From assembly GCA_049969715.1 (NCBI GenBank), contig JBMFOH010000001.1:4232-68231 (forward strand): 64,000 nucleotides of DNA, read 5' to 3'. The position numbers and the translations under genes are program-made. This DNA comes from a bacterium (GTDB taxonomy: Bacteria; DUMJ01). The notes under the pieces are model-generated. The model did no database searches, had not been told where the DNA came from, and saw only the letters and a list, made by a program, of their open reading frames with translations. This document shows, in pieces, positions 153 through 40,156 of the stretch; the stretch's first letter is position 1, and the number at the start of each line of letters is the position of its first letter.

Positions 153-373
153 AAGAGGTAGAGATCTATACTGAAAGTATAACATTAAGTCAATTCTTGA
201 AATGGATAGGGATTGCACAGACTGGAGGAGGAGCAAAACTTTTGATCCAACAGGGATTAGTAACTGTAAATGGCAAGGTCCAGACCAAAAGAGGTAAGAT
301 ATTAAGGGAGAACGATATAGTAGGTATAAAGGGATATCCAGAAGAATTTATAATAAGAAGAAAGGTTATATGA
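149..373 (+). CDS. S4-domain RNA-binding protein (YaaA-like)
   Basis: 74 aa. LSQFLKWIGIAQTGGGAKLLIQQGLVTVNGKVQTKRGKIL matches the S4 fold of YaaA-type proteins. It has the classical dnaN-yaaA-recF position and a GTG start overlapping the dnaN stop. Confidence 0.8.
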   Translation: MKEVEIYTESITLSQFLKWIGIAQTGGGAKLLIQQGLVTVNGKVQTKRGKILRENDIVGIKGYPEEFIIRRKVI

Positions 374-1449
374 ACCTAGATCTTATTGAGCTTCTCAATT
401 ATAGGAATTATTCTCATACAACTCTTGAATTTAGCCCCTATTTTAATGTGCTTACAGGTCCTAATGGTTCAGGTAAAACCAATCTCCTTGAGGCTATACA
501 CCTTCTTGCTAATGGAGAGGTAAAGAGAGGAAGGAGGGACGCGGAAGCAATAAAATGGAATGAGACATTTTCTTGGATAAGGGGAGAAGTAAGTTATGAA
601 GACGGGAGGATTGTAAAACTTGTAGTACAGATAAATTCTAATGGAAAGGACTTTTCCATAAATGGGAAGATAAAGACCTTAAAAGAATATATAGGAACAT
701 TCTCTGTAGTTTCTATCTTTGAAGATGATGAAGAGATTATCTCAGGAGATCCTGATAAGAGGAGAGAATTTTTGGATAAGTTTATTATAAGTATTGAACC
801 TTCGTATTATTCTCTTATTACTAGATATAGAAATGTATTAGTAAGGAGGAATAGACTTTTAAAAGAGGGAACCTCAGATAAAAGACTCATAGAGGCTCTA
901 ACCGAAATCCTCCTTAAATATGGAGGGGAAATAATAAGGTCTAGGGATAGATTCATTTCTATATACAATGAATATCTAGCTAGGGAATGTAAAAGAATAG
1001 GTTTTTCTATAGAGATAGATATCCCTGAGTTTTCTGGTGATATTGAAGAGAAGGTCTCCATATATAGGAAAAGATTTGAGGCATCAAGAAAGAAAGAAGA
1101 AGTTATTGGGGCTACATTAGTAGGACCCCATAGGGATGAAGTTGTTATAAAAATGGATGGAAAGGATAGTAGAAGTTTTGCCTCTAATGGAGAGTCAAGA
1201 ATAATTGTGTTTCTTATTAAGCTTACCCAGTGGGAACTTATAAGAAGTTTAAAAAAGTATAAACCTATCTTTGTTGTTGATGAATTTTTAAATAAGCTGG
1301 ACAGAAATAATGTAAATCTTATCCTAGAGATAATAGAAGAAAAATCTCCCCAGGTCTTTCTATCAGAACTAGTAGATATTCCTATAGGTAAAAAGGGTAT
1401 TATTTTTTCTATAGAAAAAGGTGAGATCTTGAATGAAAAGACTTTTTGA
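370..1449 (+). CDS. recF: DNA replication and repair protein RecF
   Basis: Walker A GPNGSGKTNLLEAI, SMC-like signature FASNGESR, Walker B-like IFVVDEF. 359 aa, with synteny after dnaN/S4. Confidence 0.9.
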   Translation: MNLDLIELLNYRNYSHTTLEFSPYFNVLTGPNGSGKTNLLEAIHLLANGEVKRGRRDAEAIKWNETFSWIRGEVSYEDGRIVKLVVQINSNGKDFSINGKIKTLKEYIGTFSVVSIFEDDEEIISGDPDKRREFLDKFIISIEPSYYSLITRYRNVLVRRNRLLKEGTSDKRLIEALTEILLKYGGEIIRSRDRFISIYNEYLARECKRIGFSIEIDIPEFSGDIEEKVSIYRKRFEASRKKEEVIGATLVGPHRDEVVIKMDGKDSRSFASNGESRIIVFLIKLTQWELIRSLKKYKPIFVVDEFLNKLDRNNVNLILEIIEEKSPQVFLSELVDIPIGKKGIIFSIEKGEILNEKTF

Positions 1450-1849
1450 TATCTTTTTGAACCTGCCATTCCGTAATTATTCCTTACTTCCTATAGCTTG
1501 GCATAAGGTAGTAGGGGATTATGCATCAAGATTTGCTCGGGTATCTTACTATAAAAATGGTGTCCTCTATGTGGATGTTCCTGCTCCTGCCTGGTCAAAT
1601 GAGCTTTCCGTTGCTAAGTTGATGATCGTAGATGCATTAGTAAAAGAGACCGGTATATCTATCACTGACATAAAGTTTAGGGTTTATTCTTTTAATATAA
1701 AAGAGAAGGAAAATCTTGATCTTAAAGAACTTACAGATGAAGAGATAGATTATATAAACTCTTTACTCGCTGACTTAAAGTATGAAGAACTAAAAAGACC
1801 CATATTCAATATAATAGGGTATCATCTTTTGAGAAAGAAAAAGAAGTAA
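1433..1849 (+). CDS. DUF721 (YaaB/DciA-like) protein
   Basis: 138 aa. WHKVVGDYASRFARVSYYKNGVLYVDVPAPAWSNELS matches the DUF721 pattern (W..vvG ... L.v.v.s.aW..eL). It overlaps the recF end, the usual post-recF position. Confidence 0.7.
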   Translation: MKRLFDIFLNLPFRNYSLLPIAWHKVVGDYASRFARVSYYKNGVLYVDVPAPAWSNELSVAKLMIVDALVKETGISITDIKFRVYSFNIKEKENLDLKELTDEEIDYINSLLADLKYEELKRPIFNIIGYHLLRKKKK

Positions 1850-1851
1850 TC

Positions 1852-2745
1852 CTACCCTTTCAGTCCTACCTGTTCTATAGCTGTAAGATAATACTTCTGC
1901 GTAAAAAGATACAATAGAAGGCAAGGAATCATCGTAATCATAACCGCTGCCATCATCATAGGATATGATACTACGTTTGGGTTCATAGCCCCAAAACCAC
2001 TGCCTATAAAGCTTGGGTCCACAGAGAATAGTAAAGAGAGAGATATGGGCAGTGTCTTGATATTATTGAAGAATATAATGCTTCTTGCATACTCATTCCA
2101 GTACCATACAAAAGAAAAGAGTCCAACTGTGATTATTGCTGATTTTGCTAGCGGTAGATAGATATACCAAAAGCATTCAAAGAATGATGCTCCATCTATC
2201 ACTGCCGCATCTTCTAATTCCGATGGTAAGGTATTAAATACCTGTCTGAATAAAAATATACACAAGGGCGCATATATACCAAAACCAAAGAATGATGGAA
2301 CTATGAATACATTTAGGGTATCTAACCAGTTGAGGCTGTGAAAGAGTATATAGTATGGAATCATAAGTATTTGGGGTGGTATAACTAGTGTAGCAAGTAC
2401 AATCATCATAAGAATCTCTTTTCCCGGAAATTTCCCTCTACTAAATCCGTACCCTACTACAGCAGAGGATAAGACCTGTCCTATTATACAGGTACCAGTT
2501 AATTTTATAGAGTTGATGATAGAGGTAGCAAAGTCCATGGGTTTTAGAACATCTATATAGTTTCTAAGATTAATATGGTTTGGAATCCATGTTACTGATG
2601 GGTCCATATAATCCTCTATTGTCATTACGGATACTATTAAGCTTCTCAGTATTGGATATAAGAATATGAATGCTCCATCTATAAGTAGTAGATACAACAG
2701 GAGTTTAGGAAGTATGTATTTTATCTTATATTTTGAAAGTCTCAT
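1852..2745 (-). CDS. Carbohydrate ABC transporter permease (MalG-type)
   Basis: 297 aa, about 6 TM segments. EAA loop LEDAAVIDGASFFECFWYIYLPLAKS is typical of the binding-protein-dependent permease family. Confidence 0.85.
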   Translation of the reverse strand: MRLSKYKIKYILPKLLLYLLLIDGAFIFLYPILRSLIVSVMTIEDYMDPSVTWIPNHINLRNYIDVLKPMDFATSIINSIKLTGTCIIGQVLSSAVVGYGFSRGKFPGKEILMMIVLATLVIPPQILMIPYYILFHSLNWLDTLNVFIVPSFFGFGIYAPLCIFLFRQVFNTLPSELEDAAVIDGASFFECFWYIYLPLAKSAIITVGLFSFVWYWNEYARSIIFFNNIKTLPISLSLLFSVDPSFIGSGFGAMNPNVVSYPMMMAAVMITMIPCLLLYLFTQKYYLTAIEQVGLKG

Positions 2746-3632
2746 TCTTCATTCCTCTGATATCTTACAAGGTATCTCTGAGAGTAATAGTATGTAAGGA
2801 GAGTAAATGATATAACAATCCCAAGGAAGAGCCAACTTACTGCTGCCCCATAACCGAGCCTATACTGCTCAAAGCTTATATTGTATACATAGTCCATAAA
2901 GAATGGTATAACAGTTCTTCCGTGGGCGAGAACCCTGGCAATAGTAAATATATTTGTAAATGATTCTATAACTGTAAATACCATATTTATCACTGTAAAT
3001 GGAGCTAACAATGGCATAGTAATAGCCCAGAGGCTCTTCCACCAGCTGGCCCCATCTATCTGTGCCGCTTCATATATCTGTGGGTCTATACTTTGAAGAC
3101 CTGCTAAGAATATGAGCATCTGGATTCCTACCCTCCACATACCTAAGACTAGTATGGTTGAAAAGAGAGAGATTAGATTTTGGATATTTGGTTCTAACCT
3201 TATCCCGAATGTTTCTAATGTGACATTGACATTGACCATCTTACTAAAGATATCTGGCCCTATCTTTGCAACAACTACATCTGAAGCTGCTACAACTGGT
3301 AAGAAATATACAACCCTGAAGAATCCTATACCTTTGACCTTCTGATTGACTAGTATTGCAAGGATAAGTGAGAACAACATAGTAAAGGGTATGCTTATTA
3401 CCCCATAACCAAGTGTCATACCAAGGCTATACCAGAAGTCTCTATCTTCTAAAAGTGCTTCTCTATAGTTTTCGATCCCTATGAACTGACTTCCATTGAA
3501 ACTCCATTTGAAAAAACTGAGTCCGAAAGAGAAGATGAGAGGAAATACTAAAAATATCAACGCCCCTATTATCCAAGGGGATATAGCTATATAACTCATT
3601 ATCACATTTTTCTTTTTATACGTTAGTTTCAT
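2742..3632 (-). CDS. Carbohydrate ABC transporter permease (MalF-type)
   Basis: 296 aa, multi-TM. EAA loop YEAAQIDGASWWKSLWAITMPLLAP. 4-nt overlap with the downstream permease gene. Confidence 0.85.
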   Translation of the reverse strand: MKLTYKKKNVIMSYIAISPWIIGALIFLVFPLIFSFGLSFFKWSFNGSQFIGIENYREALLEDRDFWYSLGMTLGYGVISIPFTMLFSLILAILVNQKVKGIGFFRVVYFLPVVAASDVVVAKIGPDIFSKMVNVNVTLETFGIRLEPNIQNLISLFSTILVLGMWRVGIQMLIFLAGLQSIDPQIYEAAQIDGASWWKSLWAITMPLLAPFTVINMVFTVIESFTNIFTIARVLAHGRTVIPFFMDYVYNISFEQYRLGYGAAVSWLFLGIVISFTLLTYYYSQRYLVRYQRNEE

Positions 3633-4660
3633 TTCTCACCTACTAATATATAAGGTAAGATTAATAGCCCGATCAAAAATACCCATAATGGGGATGGAGG
3701 GAGGTCAAGTCTTAGAGAAATAGTTCTAGATAAGATAAGACTAGATATCTCTCCAACAGATATACCTAGGATAACAGACTTCCATCTATTATGGAGGCTT
3801 TTTATTATCATCAATCCTGACCACAGGAGTATTATAGAAACAGCTACAAGGACAAGGATAAATATACCAAGATAAACCTTTAAGGTCATTAGCCTTTCGT
3901 GAACATTAAAGACCTCATAATCACTCTCTTGGAGATGTCTAAATCTTAGTGTCCTTACTATCTCATCTTTTAGGACTGACTTTAGTGTCCCCCAACTAAA
4001 CTCTGGTTTTACTCTTATTATCACTGCATCTAACTTTTCTTCTGGATTATAAAATAATGGAATTATTACCTCTCTCTTTGGATATATAAGGTCTGCCAGT
4101 TGAGATATCATGGGAAGATAGTCCCTTAAGACTGTATATCTATTTATAATCTTTTCTATAAATGATTGGGAAAGGACTCCAACAATTATATACCTATTAC
4201 CATTTATATATAACTCACTTCTAATAGGGTCTACCTCATTTGAGAAAAAGATATTCTTTGAACTTTCAGGTATGAGTGCTACCTTCTGAAATCTCTGAAA
4301 GTCTATAGGTTTAAAGCTTCTTCCAAGTTCTACTATCCTTCCAGTTATTTGAGGAAAGTCAGGGGTTATTTCTGTTATATTCATCGGTTCTTCCTTGTCC
4401 TCAAATAAGACAGTAGTAGTAAACCTTTTTACAGTATCAACTGCTACTACTCCTTGGATCTTAGAGATAGCTTTTGCGTCCTCCCAGGTAAGTGGCTCTA
4501 GTTTCATATCTTCTGTAAAGTAGGGAGATATGGCAAAGACATTTAGCCCATAGGTAAGCGGGTTCTCTCCCAACCCTATAGTTATAGATTCCCATACAGA
4601 AAGTATAAATGAAGCCAGCATAACTGCTAATACTATCTTTACTATTGCGTTTCTAACCAT
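3629..4660 (-). CDS. MacB-type periplasmic-core-domain protein with short, degenerate FtsX-like C-terminus (YknZ-like); no ATPase partner in window
   Basis: 343 aa. N-terminal TM, then a roughly 200-aa MacB_PCD-like region (LTWEDAKAISKIQGVVAVDTV ... VALIPESSKNIFF ... YINGNRYIIVGVL). It then carries only about 85 aa of TM segments where a full FtsX domain is expected. Confidence 0.6.
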   Translation of the reverse strand: MVRNAIVKIVLAVMLASFILSVWESITIGLGENPLTYGLNVFAISPYFTEDMKLEPLTWEDAKAISKIQGVVAVDTVKRFTTTVLFEDKEEPMNITEITPDFPQITGRIVELGRSFKPIDFQRFQKVALIPESSKNIFFSNEVDPIRSELYINGNRYIIVGVLSQSFIEKIINRYTVLRDYLPMISQLADLIYPKREVIIPLFYNPEEKLDAVIIRVKPEFSWGTLKSVLKDEIVRTLRFRHLQESDYEVFNVHERLMTLKVYLGIFILVLVAVSIILLWSGLMIIKSLHNRWKSVILGISVGEISSLILSRTISLRLDLPPSPLWVFLIGLLILPYILVGEK

Positions 4661-6036
4661 TTTCCTCTTTCTATAACTATCACTCTATCATAGTCATTTA
4701 ACGGTCTACTACTGTAGGTGACTACCCTTTCAAACTGATTTACTCCAGATAAGATCTCTGCTTCATCCTCTTTTATTCCACCTATCTTTACCTTCCTCTT
4801 TCTTACTACCTTTACATTGTCTCTTATTAGCCTTGCCAACTCTCTATCGTCAGGGGTAGATGGAGTAGTTTCTACTACAAATACGTACGATTCTGTCTCT
4901 TCTGGGCTGGGAGGATTTAGATAGTAGAGAGGATTTTCTATATCTTCAGGGGATTCTTGATATATTGCAGATATTGGTACAACAGTACTCAGTTTTCTTT
5001 CCTTTATAAGTATCCTTGCATAGACAGGTATTCCTATCTTTATTTCAGGAGAATACTTATCTATCTTCCCAACGACCCTTATTCCTGAGCTTCCATTTGA
5101 CTGTTCAAATCCTTCAGAGATGGATGTAATCCTTGCAGAATATTCTTTGGTAGAGAAAGGGTCTATCTTAAACCTTATCTCCTGTCCTATGCCTACCTTT
5201 GTAATAAGCTTAGGGTCTACCAAGCAGGATACGCTAATACTATCCTCGTCAGCTATAGTAGCTAGAGGTGTTCCCGGTGAGACTGATTCACCCTTCTGAA
5301 CGAATACTGATACCACTCTTCCCTTTGTCTTAGACTTTATTTCTAGTTGGCTCTTTAGAAATGCCAATTTTTCTTGGGTATTTTTTAGAGATTTAAGTGA
5401 TATATCTATTGTCTTTTTATTTAACTGCATTTCTGTATCTGCTTGTTTTTTTAGAAGGTCATAGTTGGCTTTCGATGCCTCAAATGTAAGTCTTGCTGAT
5501 TCCACCTGATCTCTATAGTTTTTGAGGTTCATCTCTGAAATAGCTCCAACCTTAAATAGACTCTCCATCCTTTTTAGGTCTTCTTCTGCCTTTTTATAAG
5601 CCTCTTCGTCTCTTTCTAATGCTATCCTTGCCTGAGAGGTATCTATAGACTCTTTTTTAGCTTTTTCTATGTCTAGTCCTATCCTTTCTATATTTAACCT
5701 TGCCTCTTCTATCTGAAGATTTATCTCGGGAGAATCTATAAGAAATAATATCTTATTTGTATCTACATAGTCTCCAATCTTTATATTTACTGCCCTTACA
5801 TTCCCAGAGACAGTACTTTTTATAGTAGAAGTAATATTGGATTCGATATAGCCTGTGGTAGATATGTCCTGTATGAATGGCTTTCTTTCCGCCATTGCCA
5901 CAGTAACCTTTGGGTAGTGTTCAAAATAGCTCTTATTGTATACATAGCCAAGATACGTAATCCATACAAGGCTTATAATAAGTATTATAATACCTATGCG
6001 TCTTCTCAATGTCTCCCTCCAATAAAAATAAACCAT
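4642..6036 (-). CDS. HlyD-family membrane fusion (periplasmic adaptor) protein
   Basis: 464 aa. N-terminal TM anchor, barrel-sandwich segment (VSGNVRAVNIKIGDYV), long coiled-coil hairpin, C-terminal beta-barrel region (GRVVSVFVQKGESVSPGTPLATI). Confidence 0.75.
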   Translation of the reverse strand: MVYFYWRETLRRRIGIIILIISLVWITYLGYVYNKSYFEHYPKVTVAMAERKPFIQDISTTGYIESNITSTIKSTVSGNVRAVNIKIGDYVDTNKILFLIDSPEINLQIEEARLNIERIGLDIEKAKKESIDTSQARIALERDEEAYKKAEEDLKRMESLFKVGAISEMNLKNYRDQVESARLTFEASKANYDLLKKQADTEMQLNKKTIDISLKSLKNTQEKLAFLKSQLEIKSKTKGRVVSVFVQKGESVSPGTPLATIADEDSISVSCLVDPKLITKVGIGQEIRFKIDPFSTKEYSARITSISEGFEQSNGSSGIRVVGKIDKYSPEIKIGIPVYARILIKERKLSTVVPISAIYQESPEDIENPLYYLNPPSPEETESYVFVVETTPSTPDDRELARLIRDNVKVVRKRKVKIGGIKEDEAEILSGVNQFERVVTYSSRPLNDYDRVIVIERGKWLETQ

Positions 6037-6707
6037 AATATTTTGGAACTATTCATCTGATATATTATCTCTATAACCCTTATCAATCCTAATGATAATA
6101 TATATAGTCCTAATGTCTTTTTAGGGTCTATCCCTTCTGCTTTAAATGTAGCTACCAGAATAATTATACTCCATATGTTACTAATATTTATCTCCCTAAT
6201 AATCATAAATAAGATATCATTGTTAAGCATATCCCTATTAAGGGGTGAGAAGATTGTTGGTGCAAGTGCAATATCTAGGTCTTTTAGATCTACAAGTCCG
6301 TCAAATCCCTTTGCAAGTAATAGATAGGTAGATATTAGATTTGAAAATAGTATAGGAAGCAAGGAAAGAGATGAAATAAGTAGTATTTTGTCGTAGTCTA
6401 TATCCTTTACCCCAACCCTTATCACCTTTGAGATGATGAAGACCTTTACTATGCACCACAGAGGTAGTAAAAGGAATGCCAATGTAATGACAAGTCTAAT
6501 AAGGGCTTCTCCTTCAGGAAGTGTTAGAGTTGGACACATTCTTATAATTGACTCTGCCTTTAAGTATAAGACCTCTCTATGAGATGAGACAGCCATGTTA
6601 CAGATGCTAGAAATGATTCCAACCAATATTGGGAGAACATACCACCTCTTTAATCTTATCTTTCCCCACTCACTGTATGGAGATATGAGGAAGTAAAACC
6701 AACTCAT
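6006..6707 (-). CDS. Polytopic membrane protein, Yip1-like (YknW-like)
   Basis: 233 aa, about 5 TM helices with no soluble domain. Placed immediately upstream of HlyD and the MacB-like gene, as yknW is in B. subtilis yknWXYZ. The family assignment is by architecture only. Confidence 0.45.
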   Translation of the reverse strand: MSWFYFLISPYSEWGKIRLKRWYVLPILVGIISSICNMAVSSHREVLYLKAESIIRMCPTLTLPEGEALIRLVITLAFLLLPLWCIVKVFIISKVIRVGVKDIDYDKILLISSLSLLPILFSNLISTYLLLAKGFDGLVDLKDLDIALAPTIFSPLNRDMLNNDILFMIIREINISNIWSIIILVATFKAEGIDPKKTLGLYILSLGLIRVIEIIYQMNSSKILWFIFIGGRH

Positions 6708-8743
6708 CTTATTATCCTATAGTCCCATGGTTTGATCCCTTGGTATGTATGTGTAGAGTAATTCACTATAATCCTTGTTCCACTCTCATATCGTGTTTCA
6801 TATATATGTCTTGCCAACTCCTTATGGTCTATAATAAACTGATACTGTAGGTCTCCAGTTTCTCTATTTATTAGATTATACTCCCTTTTTATATCATTAA
6901 TCCAATCACTGAATTTAGAACTGAATAGGCTTTTATAAAATGTATCCCTTATTAGGAGAGGAGATCTGTAGGTAACCATACTAGAAGGGAGGGCTCCATA
7001 CTCAAGATTCTTAAGAAATTCATAGTTCCAATCCTTCCTTAGATTCATTGGTGTAAAGTTGTATCTTACTATGCCATGTAGAGCTATCTCCCAGAGGGGT
7101 ATGGTGTCGCCCCCAAAGAATCCACTTGATTCTGATGGGGCATCTATTATATGATTGATCCATTTTATTCCATAGTCACATCCACCCTCTACCATCCTAG
7201 AGCTCTCTATCATATTGGAATAACTCTCACTTGTATCGAATCTAGATTGGGGATGGTTATCATCATAGCAATCTATTAAACCATAACCTATCTTCCTCAG
7301 TTCTATAGAGGTTATTCCCAACGCCTTTGCCTCATTATAGAATCTTTGAAACCTCGATTTGGCAATGCTAGGGCACATAATAAAGCCATATCGATAGTTA
7401 TTCTGCTCTACTGGAAGCTTTACAGGATTCTTTAATGTCATCTTTCTATAGAATTCTCTAGAGTTTTGATAGATATCAAAGAGGTTTACAGAAAGGCTTA
7501 TATAGGAACCTGAATTCCTTGCTATATTTATAATATTTTTAAGTCCCTTCCATCCATCAAATGGAGGAAATGTGGTTGGGTTAGCCCCTTCAAATCCTGA
7601 CTTCTCCCATCCAACAAGAATAAAATTTACCTTTATCCCAGAGCTTTGGAGTATATTTAACATTGTCTCGATGTCTTTAAATGTAGTAAGTTTGATAATA
7701 GGATCAAATAGTTCAAATCCTCTCTTTATACCCATAAATACACTAATATCCATCACGTCTGATTTCATCTGTGGAAAGTCTTTGACCTTTTCCTTCAATG
7801 GTTTTACCCCCTCTATATTGAGAAGATAATCCCTGTATGTCTTACCTACCCCTACATAGTTTGCATCTTTATCTTTTAAAATATAGTATTTTATGCTCTT
7901 TTCTTTATTATCTACTCTCTGAGTTATACGTTTCTTCCTATATATATCCTCAAAGACCTTTCTGTAGAAAAACTTTCCACTCACGGTATAGTAGCCATTC
8001 CCTGGGGTTATCTCTTTTACGATACTAGAAAATTCTTTTCCCTCATCTAATATACCAGCGAGACCGAGATTATTCTTTATACAGGAAAATACTGGAAGTG
8101 TTATTGGGATTCGATTTATGTCAGATTCCTGGGGGGTTAGATCCCCATATACTATTTTCTCTTGGTTAACTACAGAGAATACCTTATTAAATGGAATAAT
8201 CACTCCACACCCGTCAGGAATTACGAGATATCCCTTTTCTCCTACCATACCAGCGTTTAGATAAGGAAGTACATCGATACTTACAACTGGATGTTCTTTA
8301 TCTTCTACTATCTCGTTATTTGGAATTTTTACCTCGAAGAGATTCCCTTTGCTTTCAAAAAAACTGGTAAATTTGAATCCCAGTTCAGGAAAGTTATATG
8401 TCACCTTTACTGTATTTCCATCTATTAAATATGTCCTCTTTGCATTGTAAGAAAACACATCATCTACTCTACCAAGATTTTTATCCCAGAAACTTACCAC
8501 AAATGTTGACTTTATCCTTGCATCCCAATAGTCATTTACAGATTTCCACCCTATAGGTGTGGATGTAATAGTGTATTTCCCATCCCTAATAGTTAATAGG
8601 TCATCCTTTACACTGTAATCTATACTTATCATTGCTTCTACAGATGAGGCAAAGATAAATATAGAACAAAATATTATAATAAGCCTTAGAACCCTACTAA
8701 TCTGTACCATATTTCGAGATACACCTCTTTTATAAAGGACCAA
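6704..8743 (-). CDS. Large signal-anchored/secreted protein of unknown function (possibly DUF5696 / glycoside-hydrolase-like)
   Basis: 679 aa. N-terminal hydrophobic segment LRLIIIFCSIFIFASSVEA, remainder soluble. I recognise no catalytic motif. The DUF5696 suggestion rests on size and co-location with sugar permeases and a Yip1 protein. An alternative start at 8710 (MVQISR) is possible. Confidence 0.4.
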   Translation of the reverse strand: MVLYKRGVSRNMVQISRVLRLIIIFCSIFIFASSVEAMISIDYSVKDDLLTIRDGKYTITSTPIGWKSVNDYWDARIKSTFVVSFWDKNLGRVDDVFSYNAKRTYLIDGNTVKVTYNFPELGFKFTSFFESKGNLFEVKIPNNEIVEDKEHPVVSIDVLPYLNAGMVGEKGYLVIPDGCGVIIPFNKVFSVVNQEKIVYGDLTPQESDINRIPITLPVFSCIKNNLGLAGILDEGKEFSSIVKEITPGNGYYTVSGKFFYRKVFEDIYRKKRITQRVDNKEKSIKYYILKDKDANYVGVGKTYRDYLLNIEGVKPLKEKVKDFPQMKSDVMDISVFMGIKRGFELFDPIIKLTTFKDIETMLNILQSSGIKVNFILVGWEKSGFEGANPTTFPPFDGWKGLKNIINIARNSGSYISLSVNLFDIYQNSREFYRKMTLKNPVKLPVEQNNYRYGFIMCPSIAKSRFQRFYNEAKALGITSIELRKIGYGLIDCYDDNHPQSRFDTSESYSNMIESSRMVEGGCDYGIKWINHIIDAPSESSGFFGGDTIPLWEIALHGIVRYNFTPMNLRKDWNYEFLKNLEYGALPSSMVTYRSPLLIRDTFYKSLFSSKFSDWINDIKREYNLINRETGDLQYQFIIDHKELARHIYETRYESGTRIIVNYSTHTYQGIKPWDYRIIR

Positions 8744-10521
8744 AGCTCAAGATTCACTCCCTGCAAGAATAGAACAATAGCGATACCTACTAATATACCT
8801 ATTCCAGTTACCAAAAAGATAATTAGGGTTCTTCCTGCTCCAAGTTGTTGAGTAACTTTAACATTTATTAGAAACAATCCTATACTCCATAGGATAAGTC
8901 CCCTCTGTATATAGTCGTAATATATCTTTTCTTGGAATGTTAAGAAATTACTTAGAAGAGCGATAGGAAACGAGAGAATGAGGTATGGAACTACGCACAT
9001 AGCAGTAGTTACCATACATTCCTTCCATGTTCCTAAACCATCAAAGATCTCTCCTACACCGTAGAATGTAGTGCCAGCTATAAACCACAATCCCGAAAAC
9101 ATAAGGAGTCTTCTAAAGAAGATATAATTGATTCCTTCTGTATTTGGCTGGAATATGTAGTTGACATATCTTCTATTCAGTGCGTCTATAAATGCAATAA
9201 CTAGGATGATAAAAACTCCTAATATTATGGACCTATTCTTTGAAAGTTCCAGTGTTTCTACTGGTTTATACAGCATCTTACCTATGATATTCCTGAATAT
9301 ATATAAGATCTTATCTCCCAGTAAGAAGATTACTAGTAAAAGCACTATCCCTAGTATCCCCCAGAGGAATATATATCTATAGAACAGCTCCCTCCTATAC
9401 AGGATTACAGTATTGGAATATCTTGCTTTATCTTGTGCCAATTTGAACTCTTCTAACGCCTTAGAGTATTCCTTCATAGCTAGGTATGTTTCACCAAGCC
9501 CTGAATGGATGAAGTTCATATAGTTATTTAGCCTTAATGCCTCATTCCAGAAGAAGATAGCGCTGTCATAGTCTCCATCTAGTAATGCTTTATTTGCCTT
9601 ATCTATTGTTACCATAAGCCTTGATGGATGGAAGAGTTTTACCTCCCCATCATCATACCCTACAGCTAGGTATCCATCGCTTCTTATTGCTATAGATGTA
9701 GCACTATTTCCGACGGAAAAACGTGTGACAAGAGACCCTCTCTTATCATATTTATAGACTATCCCATTTGATGAATCGAGAACAAATAGATTTTCAAGTT
9801 TATCTGTACCAATGCTTAGTATTCTTACATTTACTAAAGGTCCAATCCTCATAACTTCATAGCCCTGATAGTTTATCTTCTTTATTATAGAGAGGATTGG
9901 TGAGAACCTATCTAATGTAGGCTGAGGGATATTCCCTACAATGTATATATTCCCTAGCGGGTCTATAGAAAGGGAACTAACCATGTTTAAATCTGAGCTT
10001 CCATAATCACTCTTTATAATTGTGCCAACAAATTTCCCCTTAGGCGAGAACACTGAAGCTTCTCCTGTTCCAGCATTTACTATATATAGATAACCCCTCT
10101 CATCTACGGATAGGGTCCTCCTATACGATATATATTCATATGCATTTCCCTCTCCCTCTAAGAGAAATCTAGAGACTACTTTACCTTTTGGATCTATCTT
10201 GGAGACAAGCTTCCCATTAGTTACAGTATAGAGGTTACCCCAAGGGTCTACAGCTATTGTGTCTGCTTCTGATTCCATCTCTCTAACTAGTACTCCACTA
10301 GAAGAGTAGAGTTGTAACTTATTCTCTCTTTTATCTAGGAGGTATAGATTGTTATTATTATCAAATGCAAGGGCACTAACTTCCATAGGAAGTTTTAGTA
10401 GGGGATTCTTGCTAGAGAAGAAACTATCAAGTAAAAAATAATCAGCCTTGGCAATTGTAGATATCGCCAAGATAAACGATAAGGTAAGTAGGGTGATACA
10501 TCCTATCTTATTAAATTTCAT
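8686..10521 (-). CDS. Signal peptide + NHL-type beta-propeller + TPR + C-terminal Yip1-like polytopic membrane domain fusion protein
   Basis: 611 aa. Signal peptide MKFNKIGCITLLTLSFILAISTIAKA. About six repeats of the type A(F/V)D..GNLY(V/L)(L/T)D (e.g. IAVDPWGNLYTV, LSVDERGYLYIVN, LSIDPLGNIYIVG). TPR-like DGDYDSAIFFWNEALRLN...YLAMKEYSKALEEFKLA. Then about 5 TM helices. Confidence 0.5.
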   Translation of the reverse strand: MKFNKIGCITLLTLSFILAISTIAKADYFLLDSFFSSKNPLLKLPMEVSALAFDNNNNLYLLDKRENKLQLYSSSGVLVREMESEADTIAVDPWGNLYTVTNGKLVSKIDPKGKVVSRFLLEGEGNAYEYISYRRTLSVDERGYLYIVNAGTGEASVFSPKGKFVGTIIKSDYGSSDLNMVSSLSIDPLGNIYIVGNIPQPTLDRFSPILSIIKKINYQGYEVMRIGPLVNVRILSIGTDKLENLFVLDSSNGIVYKYDKRGSLVTRFSVGNSATSIAIRSDGYLAVGYDDGEVKLFHPSRLMVTIDKANKALLDGDYDSAIFFWNEALRLNNYMNFIHSGLGETYLAMKEYSKALEEFKLAQDKARYSNTVILYRRELFYRYIFLWGILGIVLLLVIFLLGDKILYIFRNIIGKMLYKPVETLELSKNRSIILGVFIILVIAFIDALNRRYVNYIFQPNTEGINYIFFRRLLMFSGLWFIAGTTFYGVGEIFDGLGTWKECMVTTAMCVVPYLILSFPIALLSNFLTFQEKIYYDYIQRGLILWSIGLFLINVKVTQQLGAGRTLIIFLVTGIGILVGIAIVLFLQGVNLELWSFIKEVYLEIWYRLVGF

Positions 10522-10538
10522 AGTTATAAATTATACTA

Positions 10539-11963
10539 CTATTCGAGTGCTCTTAATAGAGGATAAGCCTCTGGTAAATCTTTTATGTATTCTTTCATTT
10601 CTGAAATCTCTACTATCCCTTTATAGGCAAGTTTTACAGCAAGCTTAAGGGCTTCTATCCCAGCCTTGATTCCATCAGGATGATGATAGATCGATGTTCC
10701 AGCTAGAAACATCCTTCCATCAGCTCCGAAGACCTTTATGTTATACCCGATGTTTTTTGCGCTTAGACCTCCAGCAATAACCAGTGTCATCCCATTGTTC
10801 CCTTCAAGTTCTTCCTCCTTTAATCTCTCTATTATTGAAAACTTTTCCTCATCAGTAGGTCTTATATAACCTCTCAAGGCTGGAAGTTGCATAAATGCTA
10901 CTCCAGAGAGGGCAGCTAACAGATATACTGTTTTAGGGTCCTCACCAAAGGAGTAATTTGGATCACCTGCATATCTATTCATTCCAGCAGTATGCGCATA
11001 TATTGGAACCTTATACTGTTCTCCCATCCTATAGATCTCTTTGATACTTAGGAAATCGCCTGCAAAGTGAGGAGAGAACATCAATGCATTTGCTCCACAA
11101 TCAACTGCTACTTTGGCATACTCTAGGATCTTAAATGGACTTACTGTAATATGAGGTGCAAATATGACCCTCTTTTTCGTTGGACTTGGGCTGAAGGAAA
11201 GGTCAAAACCATTATCTTCTAGACCCTTTACTGTAAGTTTTACATAGGTTTCTAACTCCTTTATAGTAAGATGTAGGTTTTCATCTGACTTAATAAATGA
11301 TGCTCCAGCTAAGGCTGACTCCACTACACTTTTAGCAAAAAGATCAGGGGGAAGCCACTTAGGCTTTACGATAGTACCTATTATCGGTTCCTCTCTATCT
11401 ATATTTAGATACTCTCTAATCCTTCTGTGCGGCCATACCTGTCCTAGAAATCTTTTCTTAAGGGTTTCTGGAAATCTATAGTCTATGACCCTTGCAGTAT
11501 AGTCACTGAATGCATTGAATGGCTCACTGGATGTTGCCATCCTCAATTGAATTAGAGGCGTATCATCTTTATTAAAAAATTCTAATGGTGTAGCAATGGT
11601 TACTATGGCTGCCTCTAAAGATTCCTCATTGTTTGTTCCCAACAGTTTTACTTCTTTTAGCCAAGACATATGACTATCATACTCTGGCGGCTTCTCTCCC
11701 TTTTCTTGCCAGGCTTCTGTTGTCCCATGTATGAGCATCATCTCTATGGCTCTTTCTATCCCGGTAAATTCATTATCCTTCATCCTACTTGCAACATAGT
11801 ACTTTGTTTCTACAGCTTCTCCTCTGTAGGTCCTTTCGCTATTTACCTTCTCTAGGATCCTTGTCTCTATGTCCTTTCTATCTAAAAACTCTCTTCCTAT
11901 GTATGGGTGTTCAGGGACCCTCTTTAAGAGCCTTCCTGTCCCTACAATGTTCTCGCTCTTCAT
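10539..11963 (-). CDS. RuBisCO large-subunit-like protein (form IV RLP)
   Basis: 474 aa. IIGTIVKPKWLP aligns to GTI(V/I)KPKLGL. ASFIKSDENL aligns to DFTKDDENV. IYAHTAGMN aligns to HIHRAMH. IAGGLS and LAGTSIYHHPDG align to the C-terminal phosphate-binding loops. N-domain HGTTEAW aligns to ESSTGTW. Confidence 0.75.
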   Translation of the reverse strand: MKSENIVGTGRLLKRVPEHPYIGREFLDRKDIETRILEKVNSERTYRGEAVETKYYVASRMKDNEFTGIERAIEMMLIHGTTEAWQEKGEKPPEYDSHMSWLKEVKLLGTNNEESLEAAIVTIATPLEFFNKDDTPLIQLRMATSSEPFNAFSDYTARVIDYRFPETLKKRFLGQVWPHRRIREYLNIDREEPIIGTIVKPKWLPPDLFAKSVVESALAGASFIKSDENLHLTIKELETYVKLTVKGLEDNGFDLSFSPSPTKKRVIFAPHITVSPFKILEYAKVAVDCGANALMFSPHFAGDFLSIKEIYRMGEQYKVPIYAHTAGMNRYAGDPNYSFGEDPKTVYLLAALSGVAFMQLPALRGYIRPTDEEKFSIIERLKEEELEGNNGMTLVIAGGLSAKNIGYNIKVFGADGRMFLAGTSIYHHPDGIKAGIEALKLAVKLAYKGIVEISEMKEYIKDLPEAYPLLRALE

Positions 11964-12025
11964 AAATTCCTCCTAGTCTTAATGTAGTTCTCTAGGTAAT
12001 ATTTTATCACAGAAAGGTGGAATGG

Positions 12026-12054
12026 TTGACTCCCAAAACAAATTGTGATAAAAT
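12026..12054 (+). promoter_or_regulatory. Sigma-70-type promoter for the aldo/keto reductase gene
   Basis: TTGACT (12026-12031), 17-nt spacer, TAAAAT (12049-12054), about 55 nt upstream of the ATG. Flanked by the inverted repeat TTTTATCACA / TGTGATAAAA. Confidence 0.4.
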
Positions 12055-12107
12055 GTGCTGAAACGTAGAAAAACGAAATCTTCTATTCCTTATAAAGGAG
12101 GGCTAAT

Positions 12108-13250
12108 ATGCAGTATAGAAAATTTGGTAGTACCGATTTCAAGGTCTCAGCTTTGGGCTTTGGTGCAATGAGACTTCCTATTATAGGAGGAGACGAGTCA
12201 AAGATAGATGAGGCTTTGGCTATTAAAATGATAAGATACGCCATAGATAATGGAGTAAATTATGTGGATACTGCCTATGGGTATCATAGGGGAAACAGTG
12301 AGATTGTCGTAGGAAAGGCTTTAAAAGATGGATATAGAGAAAAGACTAAGTTAGCAACAAAACTCCCAGTTTGGCTTGTAAACGCAAGAGAAGATATGGA
12401 TAGACTCTTAAATGAACAGTTAAGGAAGTTAGATACAGATCATATAGATTTTTATCTCCTCCATGCCCTTAATAAGGACTCCTGGGATAAGGTGTATAAT
12501 CTAGGGGTCCTAGATTGGGCTGAAGGTGTAATAAAAAAGGGACTTATAAGATATATAGGATTCTCATTCCATGATGACCTAGATACATTTAAAAGGATAG
12601 TAGATACCTACAATTGGACATTCTGTCAGATACAGTATAACTATATGGATATCTATACACAGGCTGGACAGGAAGGGTTAAAGTACGCTGCTAATAAGGG
12701 TATAGCGGTAGTAATTATGGAACCACTAAGAGGAGGAAGATTAGCCAATCCTCCAGAAAGGGTCCTAGATGTATTTAATAGTGCCAGTATAAAGAGATCT
12801 CCAGTAGCATGGGCTCTCCTTTGGCTTTGGAATCAGCCAGAGGTTTCTACTGTATTAAGTGGGATGAGCACATTTGAACAGGTAAAAGAGAATGTAGAGA
12901 TTGCATCTCTGTCAGGGATAAATATCTTTAGCGATCAGGAACTCCAACTAATACAAAGGGTGAGGGATACCTATCTTGGTATAAAGGCTATAGATTGTAC
13001 ACAATGTAGCTACTGTATGCCTTGTCCAAATGGGGTAGATATACCTAGAAATTTCGCCCTTTATAACGAAGGAGTTAGATATAATGATTTTGGTGGACCA
13101 AGATGGCAGTATCTAAACGGCCTAAAACCAGAGGAGAGGGCAAGTAGCTGCATAAAGTGTGGAGAGTGTGAGCCAAAGTGCCCTCAGGGTCTTCCTATTA
13201 GAGACCTTTTAGATATGGTAAAATCAAAGTTTGAAGAGGCTACTACATAA
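12108..13250 (+). CDS. Aldo/keto reductase with C-terminal 4Fe-4S ferredoxin-type domain
   Basis: 380 aa. AKR N-terminus FKVSALGFGAMRLP, DTAYGYHRGNSE. C-terminal cysteine clusters CTQCSYCMPCP and CIKCGECEPKCP. Confidence 0.85.
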   Translation: MQYRKFGSTDFKVSALGFGAMRLPIIGGDESKIDEALAIKMIRYAIDNGVNYVDTAYGYHRGNSEIVVGKALKDGYREKTKLATKLPVWLVNAREDMDRLLNEQLRKLDTDHIDFYLLHALNKDSWDKVYNLGVLDWAEGVIKKGLIRYIGFSFHDDLDTFKRIVDTYNWTFCQIQYNYMDIYTQAGQEGLKYAANKGIAVVIMEPLRGGRLANPPERVLDVFNSASIKRSPVAWALLWLWNQPEVSTVLSGMSTFEQVKENVEIASLSGINIFSDQELQLIQRVRDTYLGIKAIDCTQCSYCMPCPNGVDIPRNFALYNEGVRYNDFGGPRWQYLNGLKPEERASSCIKCGECEPKCPQGLPIRDLLDMVKSKFEEATT

Positions 13251-14557: not shown

Positions 14558-14643
14558 TGTAAACAGTCCTTTCTTTTATCCACCTTTATAGATATAATTA
14601 TATCAGAAATGAAGATTTCACTTCTACAAGATTGGAGGATATT

Positions 14644-16311
14644 ATGATACAGGTAGAGTTTAGAGGGGCTATTAAGATAGATTTAGAGAAGCCAAGTTCT
14701 GTTAGGGAGATTATAGAAGAGAATCCGAACATCCCTAAAGAACTTTTAGGTAACAGTGATATGCCGATAGCGGTAAGATTAGAGGATAGGATAGAGGATC
14801 TGAACCTAGTTATCGAAGAGGATAAAAAATTAGACCTAATTGGAGTAAAAAATAATTTTGGCAGGAGAATATGGGAGAGAAGTTATATATTTCTTCTCAA
14901 TCTTGCCTGCAAAAAACTATTCCCTGAATTGAATATAGTCGTAGAACACTCCTATCATAAAAGTCTGTATGGAAGGTTTAGGAATTATACCCCAAGATTG
15001 AAAGATATAGAGGATATTGAAGCCAAGATGAAGAAACTGGCAGAGTTAGATATCCCTATTAGAAAAGAGGTGTGGGAGAGGGAGAAGGCACTGAAGTTTT
15101 TTGAGGAGAGGAAAGAAAATGATAAGATGAGGTTATTGAGGAATATCCAATCTGAATATGTAACATTATATCATATAGAGGACTATTATGAATATTCCTA
15201 TCTTCCATTGGCTCCATCTACAGGGTATCTGACAAATTTTGCCCTAAGGTTATATCAACCAGGATTCTTGCTTATTCTTCCCTCTGAGAAGGATATTACA
15301 GAGCTTGCAGAGTTTAAAGAGGTTGTCAGATTATTTCAGGCATTCTATGAGTATAAAACCTGGCTCGAGATCCTTGGGCTTACTAATGTGGCATCCCTCA
15401 ATGATGCTATAGAGAATGGAGAGATATCAGAGATAATAAAGGTAGCTGAGGCATTGCATGAAAAGAAGATTATTAAGATCGCTGATGAGATATGCTCTAA
15501 ACTTCCGGATCTGAGACTGGTCCTTATTGCTGGTCCTTCCTCAGCGGGTAAGACTACATTTAGCAAGAGATTACAGATTCAACTGAAGGTAAATGGGATA
15601 AGACCAGTAGTTATAGAGATGGATGATTATTTTTTATCGCCTAAAATGGTGGCTAGGGATGAGTATGGGAACTATGATTTTGATAGTCCTAAGGCATTAG
15701 ATATTAATCTCCTCAATGAGCATTTGACCCTTCTTATGAATGGCCAAGAGGTTGAGCTTCCAAAGTATAATTTTGGAAAGAAAAGGAGAGAAAAGTCAGG
15801 AAGAACGGTAAAGATAGAGGAGAATAGTATTATTGTGATGGAAGGGATCCATGCCCTTAATCCGGAATTAACCGTAGATATTCCTGGCTATATGAAATAT
15901 CACATATTTGTTAGCGCCTTGACCCATCTAAATCTGGATAATCAGAATAGGGTTCCCACTACCGATGCTAGGCTTATACGCCGTATAGTAAGGGATAGTA
16001 TATTTAGAGCTCATGGAGCTTTAGACTCTATACGCCAATGGCCCTCAGTAAGAAAGGCTGAAGACCTATACATATTTCCAAATCAGGAAAGAGCTGATGT
16101 TATGTTCAACTCAGCATTGGTATACGAATTCTCTGTCCTTAAGACTTTTATAGAACCTATGTTAAAGGCTGTCCCTCCATACTACGAGGAGTATCCAGAG
16201 GCAAAGAGGCTACTAGATATCTTATCTCACTTCCTTCCCCTTTCTCCTACTGAGGTTCCTATGACCTCAATACTTAGAGAATTTATAGGAGGAAGCTCAT
16301 TTGTCTACTGA
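14644..16311 (+). CDS. Uridine-kinase-family nucleoside kinase with N-terminal TGS / ThrRS-N-like region
   Basis: P-loop GPSSAGKTTFSKRL in the C-terminal half, with PRK/Udk-like MEGIHALNPEL. ATG at 14644 follows a GGAGGA RBS. The track ORF starts at 14632 (TTG). Confidence 0.75.
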   Translation: MIQVEFRGAIKIDLEKPSSVREIIEENPNIPKELLGNSDMPIAVRLEDRIEDLNLVIEEDKKLDLIGVKNNFGRRIWERSYIFLLNLACKKLFPELNIVVEHSYHKSLYGRFRNYTPRLKDIEDIEAKMKKLAELDIPIRKEVWEREKALKFFEERKENDKMRLLRNIQSEYVTLYHIEDYYEYSYLPLAPSTGYLTNFALRLYQPGFLLILPSEKDITELAEFKEVVRLFQAFYEYKTWLEILGLTNVASLNDAIENGEISEIIKVAEALHEKKIIKIADEICSKLPDLRLVLIAGPSSAGKTTFSKRLQIQLKVNGIRPVVIEMDDYFLSPKMVARDEYGNYDFDSPKALDINLLNEHLTLLMNGQEVELPKYNFGKKRREKSGRTVKIEENSIIVMEGIHALNPELTVDIPGYMKYHIFVSALTHLNLDNQNRVPTTDARLIRRIVRDSIFRAHGALDSIRQWPSVRKAEDLYIFPNQERADVMFNSALVYEFSVLKTFIEPMLKAVPPYYEEYPEAKRLLDILSHFLPLSPTEVPMTSILREFIGGSSFVY

Positions 16312-16747
16312 TAGCACAGATTGTGTATTCTGTAGGATCATAAGAGGGGAAGAGAAGGCTTACATAGTATTTGAAGATGATTCTTCTATAACCTTTTTAG
16401 ATATACGACCTTTATTCCCTGGGCACTGTCTTGTGGTTCCTAAACAACACTACGAAACCCTGGCTGACCTTCCTGATGACTCTATTGAGAAGATCTTCAA
16501 AAACGCCAAGCTTGTTTCTCAGGCGGTAGAGATTGCTTTAAAGGCAGACGGTTCATTTATAGGTATAAATAATAAGGTGAGCCAGAGTGTGCCTCATCTG
16601 CATATCCATATTATTCCTAGGAAAAGAGGGGATGGATTAAAGGGTTTCTTCTGGCCTAGAACTAGATATAAGGACGAGAAGGAGCTGCTAGAGATTCAGT
16701 CGATGATTAAAGCTAGTATAGAGAAGATGATAAGAGGAAAAATATGA
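16301..16747 (+). CDS. HIT-family (histidine triad) nucleotide hydrolase/transferase
   Basis: 148 aa. CVFCRI zinc-type N-terminus and histidine triad PHLHIHIIP. Overlaps the upstream kinase gene by 11 nt. Confidence 0.9.
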   Translation: MSTDSTDCVFCRIIRGEEKAYIVFEDDSSITFLDIRPLFPGHCLVVPKQHYETLADLPDDSIEKIFKNAKLVSQAVEIALKADGSFIGINNKVSQSVPHLHIHIIPRKRGDGLKGFFWPRTRYKDEKELLEIQSMIKASIEKMIRGKI

Positions 16748-19598: not shown

Positions 19599-20543
19599 CT
19601 AAACAACTATGTTATCTGGTACCTCTCCATGTAGTATCTTTAAGATATTCCTCGCACATACCATACTTACTGAATTTACGGTTTCTTTTGAATACATCCC
19701 TATATGGGGAAGCACTATAACATTATCTAAAGAGATCAAAAGGTCTTTTACATGGGAATTCTTGTCTATGACATCTAGACCTACACCGCTGAGATGTCCT
19801 TCTTTTAAATATTTATATAGAGCGGACTCATTTACTATCTCTTCTCTAGCAGTGTTTATGATAAAGCTTCCCTTTTTCATCATCGCAATCTCCCTATCAC
19901 CTATTAGTCCTTTAGTCTGGCTAGTAAGAGGTGTGTGAATAGTCAAAAAATCTACATTTTTTAAGAGGTCTTCTAAAGAGACTAATCTTACAAATGAAAA
20001 TTCTTCCGAAAGTTTCTCTATATAGGGGTCATATGCGAGTACTTCCATATCAAAACCCCTAGCCCTCTTGGCAACCCTTTTACCTATAGCACCAAATCCT
20101 ATTATCCCCAAGGTTTTTTGATGTACATCTACGCCTATAAGTGGCTCCCAGATGCCATTCTTAACCCTTTGTGATGAAGCAGATATCCTTCTGGCAAGGT
20201 CTATTATAAGGCCAAAAGCTAGGTCAGCAACTGCCTCAGAATTCATAGAAGGAACATTTGTAACCCTTATACCAGACTCCCTGGCTCTTTCTAGGTCGAT
20301 ATTATCTGTCCCTACCCCATGTTTGCATATTATCTTTAGATTCTTTGCCTTTTCTAGCATCCTTTGAGTGATCTTATCATTTCCCACTATAATGGCATCA
20401 TATCTATCAATAATCTCCAATATATCTTCTTCTTTTGGTTCAGTGAGAAAGTCTATTTGGATTCCATTTTCCCTAAGTAGACTAACAGGCTCTTCATTTA
20501 TTCTCCCAAAAGACCTCGATGTAACAAGGACCTTCCAACACAT
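19599..20543 (-). CDS. D-isomer-specific 2-hydroxyacid dehydrogenase (PGDH/GyaR-like)
   Basis: Rossmann motif GIIGFGAIGKRVAKRA, catalytic-region PHIGMYSKE. ATG at 20543 follows a GGAGG RBS. The track ORF begins at 20567. Confidence 0.85.
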   Translation of the reverse strand: MCWKVLVTSRSFGRINEEPVSLLRENGIQIDFLTEPKEEDILEIIDRYDAIIVGNDKITQRMLEKAKNLKIICKHGVGTDNIDLERARESGIRVTNVPSMNSEAVADLAFGLIIDLARRISASSQRVKNGIWEPLIGVDVHQKTLGIIGFGAIGKRVAKRARGFDMEVLAYDPYIEKLSEEFSFVRLVSLEDLLKNVDFLTIHTPLTSQTKGLIGDREIAMMKKGSFIINTAREEIVNESALYKYLKEGHLSGVGLDVIDKNSHVKDLLISLDNVIVLPHIGMYSKETVNSVSMVCARNILKILHGEVPDNIVV

Positions 20544-22241: not shown

Positions 22242-22253
22242 AGTACCCTCCTA

Positions 22254-23225: not shown

Positions 23226-23239
23226 CTTTTTACACCTCT

Positions 23240-40148: not shown

Positions 40149-40156
40149 TAATAAAG

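Follow-up and report, generated by a model that had tools for sequence, protein, structure and literature searches.

Several described transport systems resemble parts of the locus examined here. Canonical carbohydrate importers of the CUT1 type encode their own cognate extracytoplasmic solute-binding protein (SBP). Where importers share a multitask ATPase (MsmK, MsmX or MsiK), the operon encodes two BPD_transp_1 transmembrane domains (TMDs), which carry EAA loops, but not the ATPase itself. In the type VII ATP-binding cassette (ABC) systems (MacB, LolCDE, Spr0694-0695), the membrane subunit has four transmembrane helices (TM1 to TM4) with a Porter/Sabre-type periplasmic core domain (PCD) between TM1 and TM2, and mechanotransmission needs nucleotide-binding domains (NBDs) on a coupling helix. 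Bacillus YknWXYZ combines the Yip1-family protein YknW, the adaptor YknX, the ATPase YknY and the MacB-type permease YknZ. We analysed a 64,000-nucleotide stretch of DNA from an uncultured bacterium (contig JBMFOH010000001.1, positions 4,232 to 68,231; hereafter the window), in which seven minus-strand genes (1852-10521) place a CUT1 permease pair beside three proteins of the YknW, YknX and YknZ kinds. The interpretation we prefer, to which we give a probability of about one half, is that these genes are a conserved envelope cassette for the uptake of oligosaccharides or glycans, served by an ATPase in trans and by a scaffold of HlyD and PCD proteins that acts independently of an NBD.

The cassette shares features with each of these systems and departs from each of them. 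Like the multitask-ATPase importers, it encodes two BPD_transp_1 TMDs that carry EAA loops and lacks an ATPase gene; unlike canonical CUT1 operons, it has no SBP of its own in any of the 14 loci of its lineage. The order Yip1, HlyD, four-TM PCD protein is that of YknWXYZ, but no YknY ATPase is encoded in the block of any of the 14 lineage loci or elsewhere in the window, and the permease differs from YknZ in having neither the coupling helices nor the Pfam FtsX domain and in being joined operonically to type I importer TMDs. The PCD protein has the four helices and core domain of the type VII subunits and, as in MacAB-TolC, is paired with a membrane-anchored HlyD adaptor in a genome with TolC-family genes; its cytoplasmic face, however, consists of a few residues, and the protein would either be static or owe any motion to some other source. 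Because the NBD and coupling elements were looked for and are absent, the cassette is not functionally a member of the YknWXYZ/MacAB family, and the missing SBP sets it apart from canonical CUT1 operons too.

Layout and conservation of the cassette

An earlier note on this DNA had described eight minus-strand genes, running from 11963 down to 1852, as a single transcription unit, and a scan of open reading frames (ORFs) recovers all eight at the coordinates it gave. From the upstream end, the cassette comprises a protein with a signal peptide, an NHL beta-propeller, TPR repeats and a C-terminal Yip1 domain (8686-10521, 611 aa; Pfam TPR, SBBP, SGL and Yip1); a DUF5696 protein (6704-8710; Pfam DUF5696, 362 bits); a stand-alone polytopic Yip1-domain membrane protein in the YknW position (6006-6707, 233 aa; Pfam Yip1); a HlyD/YknX-type periplasmic adaptor, or membrane fusion protein (4642-6036, 455-464 aa; Pfam HlyD_3, HlyD_D23 and Biotin_lipoyl_2); a MacB/YknZ-like type VII ABC membrane subunit without NBD-contact elements (3629-4660, 343 aa; Pfam MacB_PCD; hereafter the PCD protein); and two CUT1 permeases, one of MalF type (2742-3632, 296 aa; Pfam BPD_transp_1, 32 bits) and one of MalG type (1852-2745, 297 aa, six TM; Pfam BPD_transp_1, 51 bits). 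The eighth gene, upstream of these, encodes a divergent RuBisCO-like protein (RLP; 10539-11963, 474 aa; Pfam RuBisCO_large, 50.6 bits) and is considered separately below. Nearly all of the domain assignments made in the earlier note hold, the exception being the FtsX domain of the PCD protein, and hydropathy gives the expected membrane topologies for the proteins of the block.

The junctions are close throughout. The 4-nt overlaps at 2742/2745, 3629/3632 and 6704/6707, the overlaps of 19 nt at 4642/4660 and 31 nt at 6006/6036, and the 17-nt gap at 10521/10539 are all as the earlier note reported them, so that the MalF gene overlaps both of its neighbours by 4 nt. Two start sites probably need adjustment. 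For the DUF5696 gene, the ATG at 8710 is a more probable start than the TTG at 8743; the product then has 668 aa, as in the database entry (P0001), against 679 aa from the TTG, and the overlap with the NHL-TPR-Yip1 gene, a junction missing from the earlier note, is 25 nt. HlyD most likely starts at 6009, since the database HlyD (P0058) has 455 aa, and would then overlap the Yip1 gene by 4 nt. The earlier note took the close junctions to indicate a single transcription unit. Promoter and terminator scans lend this no support, as the counts over 1400-12400 do not exceed those expected from shuffled sequence, and the block is split in two relatives.

To place the cassette among its relatives, related loci were gathered by genome and metagenome scans with the DUF5696 protein. 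The metagenome scan was productive with an alignment of the lineage (A2); a more diverse alignment (A1) had no conserved stretch, and a single Ruminococcus protein used as the query returned no matches. The 14 related loci fall into two clades, with 75-87% and 56-64% DUF5696 identity. The seven genes from NHL-TPR-Yip1 to MalG occur in the same order in 9/9 contigs that span the whole block; four shorter contigs (L011, L013, L016 and L017) are consistent with this order, and a further one (L019) ends inside the Yip1 gene. Amino-acid identities of the seven genes range from 43 to 95% in the related contigs, and the flanks vary between loci. As the same seven genes recur in the same order with different flanks, the arrangement exceeds chance. 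Compared with two relatives, dN/dS is 0.02-0.15 for every gene of the block, and all seven are under purifying selection. Of the eight-gene order, whose recurrence the earlier note suggested checking, seven genes recur; the RLP gene accompanies them only in the sub-clade of the window (L012, L020).

In two loci (L018 and L019), opposite-strand insertions lie between the DUF5696 and Yip1 genes, one carrying a clostripain-like peptidase and the other a conventional SBP-MalFG operon with a ROK regulator. Because both insertions fall at this point, the cassette is made of two sub-blocks, one of NHL-TPR-Yip1 and DUF5696 and the other of Yip1, HlyD, PCD, MalF and MalG. Within the second, the PCD and MalF genes are never separated in any lineage locus, and the stop codon of PCD and the start of MalF overlap, both in the window and in those clade-B loci that were examined. 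Clade B also has a conserved cytoplasmic ORF of ~230 aa that overlaps the start of the NHL-TPR-Yip1 gene and has no counterpart in the window (L003 1086-1766, L004 3156-3851 and L005 7436-8131; also in L014, L015, L018 and L019). This ORF was considered as the missing ATPase, being of YknY size, and rejected, as Pfam finds no domain in it, a P-loop is missing and the window lacks a counterpart.

The Yip1-HlyD-PCD trio

The stand-alone Yip1 protein scores 29.9 bits against a Pfam cut-off of 28.6 and has five to six hydrophobic segments. It is the least conserved protein of the block, with 43-45% identity to clade B, and is encoded directly upstream of HlyD, as in YknWXYZ-type operons (L023, L024). 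A recent duplication of the window's two Yip1 domains is unsupported, there being no detectable similarity between them. The HlyD protein scores 119 bits with the NCBIfam model RND_mfp, above its cut-off, and has a single N-terminal TM anchor (residues 14-32). Its nearest relatives outside the lineage, at 21-24% identity (e.g. in Syntrophomonas), belong to canonical operons of Yip1, YknX-type HlyD, ABC_tran and MacB_PCD+FtsX genes, which bears out the analogy with YknW/X/Z drawn in the earlier note.

In its AlphaFold2 (AF2) model, the PCD protein consists of TM1, the periplasmic core domain, TM2, a loop of ~6 aa, TM3 and TM4. Its profile matches the periplasmic domains of MacB and YknZ among PDB sequences (E 5e-11 to 5e-8), including the YknZ extracellular domain (5f9q), and the Foldseek matches are Spr0695, MacB, YknZ and LolCE; the protein belongs to the MacB superfamily. 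Pfam finds only MacB_PCD in it, with FtsX undetected even at E<=10. In an alignment with canonical YknZ-like permeases (A4), the protein lacks the N-terminal cytoplasmic helix of ~20 aa, the major coupling helix 'ERTREIGIRxAxGA' between TM2 and TM3, and the C-terminal minor coupling helix 'YPAxRAAKLDPIxALRYE'. These three elements are the NBD contacts as described for MacB (PMC5985334). The FtsX part had been called degenerate; the loss is real, and it is more specific than that term implies, taking in all three NBD-contact elements. What is left of the protein is well conserved, with a dN/dS of 0.10-0.15 and many invariant residues in TM3 and TM4 (among them G303, E304, S311, R312 and a PPxPxW motif).

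An exhaustive HMMER search of 1.84e9 representatives shows the PCD family dropping from 672 bits within its own lineage to 63 bits, and a word-indexed homology search with the PCD protein returned its own lineage only. The sole other full-length relative with the same reduced architecture (P0081) is 24% identical and lies on a 4-kb metagenomic contig (L025, JGI 3300033156) together with genes for a membrane protein, a HlyD protein 33% identical to that of the window, and a single MalG-like BPD_transp_1 permease, which carries an EAA-type loop ('HAARLDGAS'); the gene junctions overlap there too. Three further candidates for NBD-less PCD-only variants (P0085, P0117 and P0170) were rejected as frameshifted gene calls. 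Because this contig repeats the combination of HlyD, PCD-only protein and BPD permease, there are two divergent lineages in which the genes of a motorless MacB-like/HlyD pair directly adjoin those of type I importer TMDs.

The cross-phylum module and its permease pair

Outside the lineage, distant DUF5696 proteins (19-29% identical to that of the window) occur in loci of a constant layout, which we call Firmicutes-type. In 8/8 independent loci, a giant SBP and two permeases are followed by NHL-(TPR)-Yip1 (fused or split), DUF5696 and two further permeases. Annotated examples are found in Paenibacillus cellulosilyticus (NZ_CP054609) and Butyrivibrio fibrisolvens pNP243 (NZ_CP146964). The giant SBPs measure ~970-1,010 aa and have an N-terminal region of ~580 aa without a Pfam match, followed by SBP_bac_1 (L021 2648-5608; L022 2312-5245; L026-L028). 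Neighbouring genes include those for fucose catabolism, a rhamnogalacturonan I lyase, GH43, GH16/GH30 and alpha-amylases. An operon of this kind has been described in C. bescii, where Athe_0174-0181 comprises xloEFG, an NHL repeat protein (Athe_0177), a 'putative GH129' (Athe_0178) and axoFGE, and is induced on xylan and Avicel; its SBP is XloE, whose size is not stated (PMC8579813). From the layout and the annotation, Athe_0178 is presumably a DUF5696 member. A literature search found no main-text mention of DUF5696, Athe_0177/0178 or Csac_2415/2416, and no main text pairing 'YIP1 family protein' with 'carbohydrate ABC transporter permease'.

The window and the Firmicutes-type loci have much in common. 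In both, NHL-(TPR)-Yip1 stands directly upstream of DUF5696 and is followed by orthologous MalF and MalG genes, the ATPase is usually non-adjacent, and extracytoplasmic or membrane proteins are encoded in a carbohydrate-utilisation context. They differ in that the Firmicutes-type loci have the giant SBP and first permease pair upstream, sometimes with further SBPs or a UgpC ATPase, all absent in the window lineage, whereas only the window lineage has Yip1-HlyD-PCD between DUF5696 and MalF. The permeases of the window tell the two Firmicutes pairs apart. The best matches of MalF are to the pair downstream of DUF5696 (E 1e-32 to 1e-41), as are those of MalG (E 1e-41 to 1e-54), while the SBP-linked upstream pair matches more weakly (E 1e-15 to 1e-29). 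Since the downstream pair matches so much better, the MalF and MalG of the window are orthologues of a dedicated DUF5696-downstream permease pair, and NHL-(TPR)-Yip1, DUF5696 and this pair form a cross-phylum module. The Yip1-HlyD-PCD trio is specific to the lineage, stands in place of the Firmicutes SBP unit and derives from YknW/YknX/YknZ.

The earlier note had allowed that the locus might be only a local rearrangement if homologous clusters routinely carried both an adjacent ATPase and an SBP. In distant relatives this is partly so. The SBP is indeed present in all eight loci and in C. bescii, but a UgpC-type ATPase is adjacent in only 1/8 sampled loci (Paenibacillus), and the relatives with the giant SBP are without HlyD and PCD genes.

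The same note had observed that the block contains neither an ATPase nor a binding protein, and this is true of the window and of 13 related loci. No ORF with both a Walker A and an LSGGQ motif occurs in the 64-kb window, nor does any homologue of a UgpC/MalK-type or YknY-type ATPase. There is likewise no homologue of the giant or accessory Firmicutes SBPs in the window, whose sole SBP belongs to another operon, a conventional CUT1 sugar locus on the plus strand (38811-43294) with SBP, MalF, MalG and GH4 glycosidase genes and no ATPase gene, which serves as an in-window control. For the cassette, the EAA loops are intact in MalG (ELEDAAVIDGAS...YLPL) and in MalF (YEAAQIDGASWWKSLWAITMPLL) and invariant across the lineage loci. 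With these canonical loops kept, both permeases probably still dock an NBD. MalG and MalF have sub-threshold NCBIfam matches to UgpE/MalG and UgpA/MalF, respectively, and the dN/dS of MalG is 0.02-0.06. In C. bescii, the CUT1 systems are all without an ATPase of their own and depend on a shared MsmK, as shown by deletion (PMC8579813). The ATPase-less permease pair, put forward as an anomaly, is therefore no anomaly: given the intact EAA loops and a second CUT1 operon in the window without an ATPase gene, the absence of an NBD beside MalFG is ordinary. The absence of an SBP is not.

The two other proteins of the module are conserved across phyla as well. The 611-aa protein is homologous to its Firmicutes partners (E 1e-17 to 1e-22), and the Paenibacillus 'YIP1 family protein' beside DUF5696 has the same NHL-TPR-Yip1 architecture. 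Its isolated C-terminus scores 34.7 bits with Yip1, above the cut-off, and among PDB sequences it matches the NHL domain of Thin (E 1.6e-13) and a consensus TPR (~1e-6); the NHL-TPR part is extracytoplasmic. The DUF5696 protein carries a signal peptide or anchor at its N-terminus, and its AF2 model is a confident one (pLDDT 85, pTM 0.89). Over its full length, the top Foldseek matches are the glycoside hydrolases (GH) ZgGH129 and NagBb (5opq, 8rzk and 5wzn; E ~3e-33, TM 0.66-0.68), followed by GH101, GH36 and GH31, and its profile matches a GH129 sequence (E 1e-10). The model thus predicts a GH129-like three-domain fold, with a (beta/alpha)8 barrel and an N-terminal beta-sandwich. Against the GH129 enzymes themselves (Bifidobacterium NagBb, 5wzn; Zobellia ZgGH129, 5opq/8rzk), however, identity is only 14-15%, and DUF5696 is a separate Pfam family.

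Possible roles and genomic context

Under the preferred interpretation, the cassette would be the version, in a diderm lineage, of a widespread CUT1 importer platform made of NHL-(TPR)-Yip1, DUF5696 and MalF/MalG. The energy for MalF and MalG would come from a shared MsmK/MalK-type ATPase whose gene lies elsewhere. A motorless MacB-like dimer with HlyD would form a passive scaffold across the periplasm, possibly reaching a TolC-family outer-membrane protein, while NHL-TPR-Yip1 and DUF5696 would be conserved extracytoplasmic accessories. Together with the NHL propeller and DUF5696, the scaffold may capture or process the substrate and hand it to MalF and MalG, and the HlyD/PCD scaffold would thereby substitute for the missing SBP unit. 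The domain losses, orthology and synteny are seen in these loci; the import role, the ATPase in trans and the hand-off are what we infer.

Several points weigh against this interpretation. A physical coupling of HlyD and PCD to MalFG is suggested by synteny only, and the AF2 model of the PCD protein has low confidence (pLDDT 60). We know of no established mechanism for a type I importer that is free of an SBP, and an SBP could be encoded outside the 64-kb window. Given the splits in L018 and L019, the halves of the block need not form one operon. In DUF5696, the column of the GH129 nucleophile (D435 in NagBb, which we take to be the catalytic Asp) holds Glu470, which is conserved in the lineage and replaced by non-acidic residues in most other DUF5696 proteins, and the GH129 acid/base residue falls outside the alignable region. 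The carbohydrate-active enzymes (CAZymes) beside the Firmicutes-type layout also vary widely. Because the nucleophile column is not conserved and the CAZyme neighbourhoods vary, glycosidase activity of DUF5696 appears doubtful, and a structural or binding role seems possible. The varied CAZyme sets themselves suggest a generic uptake platform.

The most serious competitor, though clearly the less probable, is that two independent systems lie side by side, a sugar importer with its SBP and ATPase elsewhere and a YknWXYZ-like efflux or envelope-protection pump that borrows an ATPase. The gene order and families of the trio are those of YknW/X/Z, the block can be split between DUF5696 and Yip1 (L018, L019), and trans-encoded ATPases are common for CUT1 systems. 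Yet a borrowed ATPase would have nothing familiar to act upon, as a PCD protein without all three NBD-docking elements cannot couple to an ATPase in the known way. Nor do two unrelated neighbours account easily for a PCD stop that overlaps the MalF start in genes that no locus separates, for the repetition of HlyD, PCD-only protein and BPD permease in the distant, independent lineage of L025, or for the trio occupying the exact place of the Firmicutes SBP-permease unit.

Somewhat less likely again is a stronger form of the import hypothesis, in which the trio was recruited from an efflux pump to serve the importer. The HlyD-capped, motorless MacB-like dimer would then be a conduit across the periplasm, or a device for substrate capture, that feeds MalF and MalG directly and replaces the SBP. 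The HlyD funnel might be docked to a TolC-family channel of the outer membrane, and any conformational drive would be passed on by the TMDs of the importer from its MalK-type ATPase.

That the cassette exports or assembles an envelope glycan, glycolipid or protein across the outer envelope, with HlyD/PCD as the exit and DUF5696 and NHL as processing or assembly factors, seems improbable to us. HlyD adaptors and MacB-type proteins do normally serve export or extraction from the periplasm, TolC-family outer-membrane proteins are encoded in the window, and the non-conserved catalytic residues of DUF5696 would fit a non-hydrolytic role. The permeases, however, are of the MalFG type, and BPD_transp_1 TMDs of this type are, to our knowledge, known only as importers. 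The cross-phylum module is also tied to SBPs and catabolic CAZymes and is induced on xylan in C. bescii, and the MacB-like part has no energy source, with no NBD in the window and its NBD contacts lost. Where the earlier note had proposed a composite machine for glycan handling or export, glycan handling thus remains plausible and export is disfavoured. That PCD, HlyD and Yip1 are decaying remnants of an ATPase-less pump beside a sugar importer that alone is functional, as the absent ATPase gene and the shortened FtsX domain, undetectable by Pfam, might suggest, is very improbable and largely refuted by the conservation data, with frames intact in all loci of two clades at 43-59% identity, a dN/dS of 0.10-0.15, invariant TM3/TM4 residues and the same reduced architecture in a second lineage.

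The RLP gene, which the earlier note had included in the unit, does not belong to the conserved module. It adjoins the cassette only in the sub-clade of the window, and in clade B the unrelated ~230-aa ORF is found in this position. It is a sub-clade-specific neighbour, possibly co-transcribed. The scores of all NCBIfam class models for this protein are far below their cut-offs; the best PDB match is a DK-MTP-1-P enolase (63 bits), and KPK and K-x-D-E motifs are present. By sequence it appears to be a form IV-type RLP that fits neither a carboxylase form nor a known RLP class. An aldo/keto reductase fused to a 4Fe-4S domain (12108-13250) is divergently paired with the RLP gene, and a 559-aa protein with a C-terminal phosphoribulokinase/uridine-kinase domain (14632-16311) is encoded ~2.7 kb away. 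At the other end of the block, recF and a DciA-family gene (370-1849, plus strand) lie immediately downstream of MalG. Past recF and DciA, related contigs (L001/L002) carry an S4-domain gene, dnaN and dnaA, which places the cassette of this sub-clade beside a dnaA-dnaN-recF cluster.

Further into the window, a minus-strand operon (43343-48862) encodes an extracytoplasmic function (ECF) sigma factor, a zf-HC2 anti-sigma factor, a 332-aa protein without a Pfam match, a DegP-like trypsin-PDZ protease and two tandem TolC-family outer-membrane proteins, the last two of which could partner HlyD adaptors in the outer membrane. The plus strand also encodes a PilQ-type secretin (55732-58449; AMIN, STN and Secretin_N domains), downstream of a run of small same-strand ORFs (51156-55730). 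As the window encodes this secretin and the two TolC-family proteins, the organism is diderm and has an outer membrane. The remaining features include a PIF1-like helicase fused to a WYL domain (16744-18309), a LarA-N-like protein with a D-2-hydroxyacid dehydrogenase (18318-20567), a 2-oxoacid dehydrogenase E1-alpha/E1-beta/E2 set with a SorC-type sugar-binding regulator (21117-25200), and RNA genes at 48991-49366 and 62374-62462 (tRNA-Ser(GGA), a large-type bacterial signal recognition particle RNA of 184 bits, and tRNA-Leu(CAA)).

The joining of a widespread sugar-importer module to a motorless, pump-like adaptor pair has not previously been described. The module sits in polysaccharide-utilisation loci of plant-biomass degraders (Caldicellulosiruptor, Butyrivibrio, Ruminococcus and Paenibacillus), and its varied CAZyme partners suggest, if confirmed, an unrecognised accessory apparatus for CUT1 importers rather than another enzyme. 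The exchange of an SBP-permease unit for HlyD and a conserved MacB-like protein free of ATPase contacts amounts to a natural experiment, and, if confirmed, would call into question whether NBD-driven mechanotransmission is the only way in which MacB-family proteins act. Should the trio indeed be a conduit feeding the importer, it would be the first adaptor-linked 'tripartite-style' ABC import machine and contain the first MacB-family protein to function in the absence of an NBD. More generally, the cassette raises the possibility of adaptor-assisted import in a diderm bacterium.

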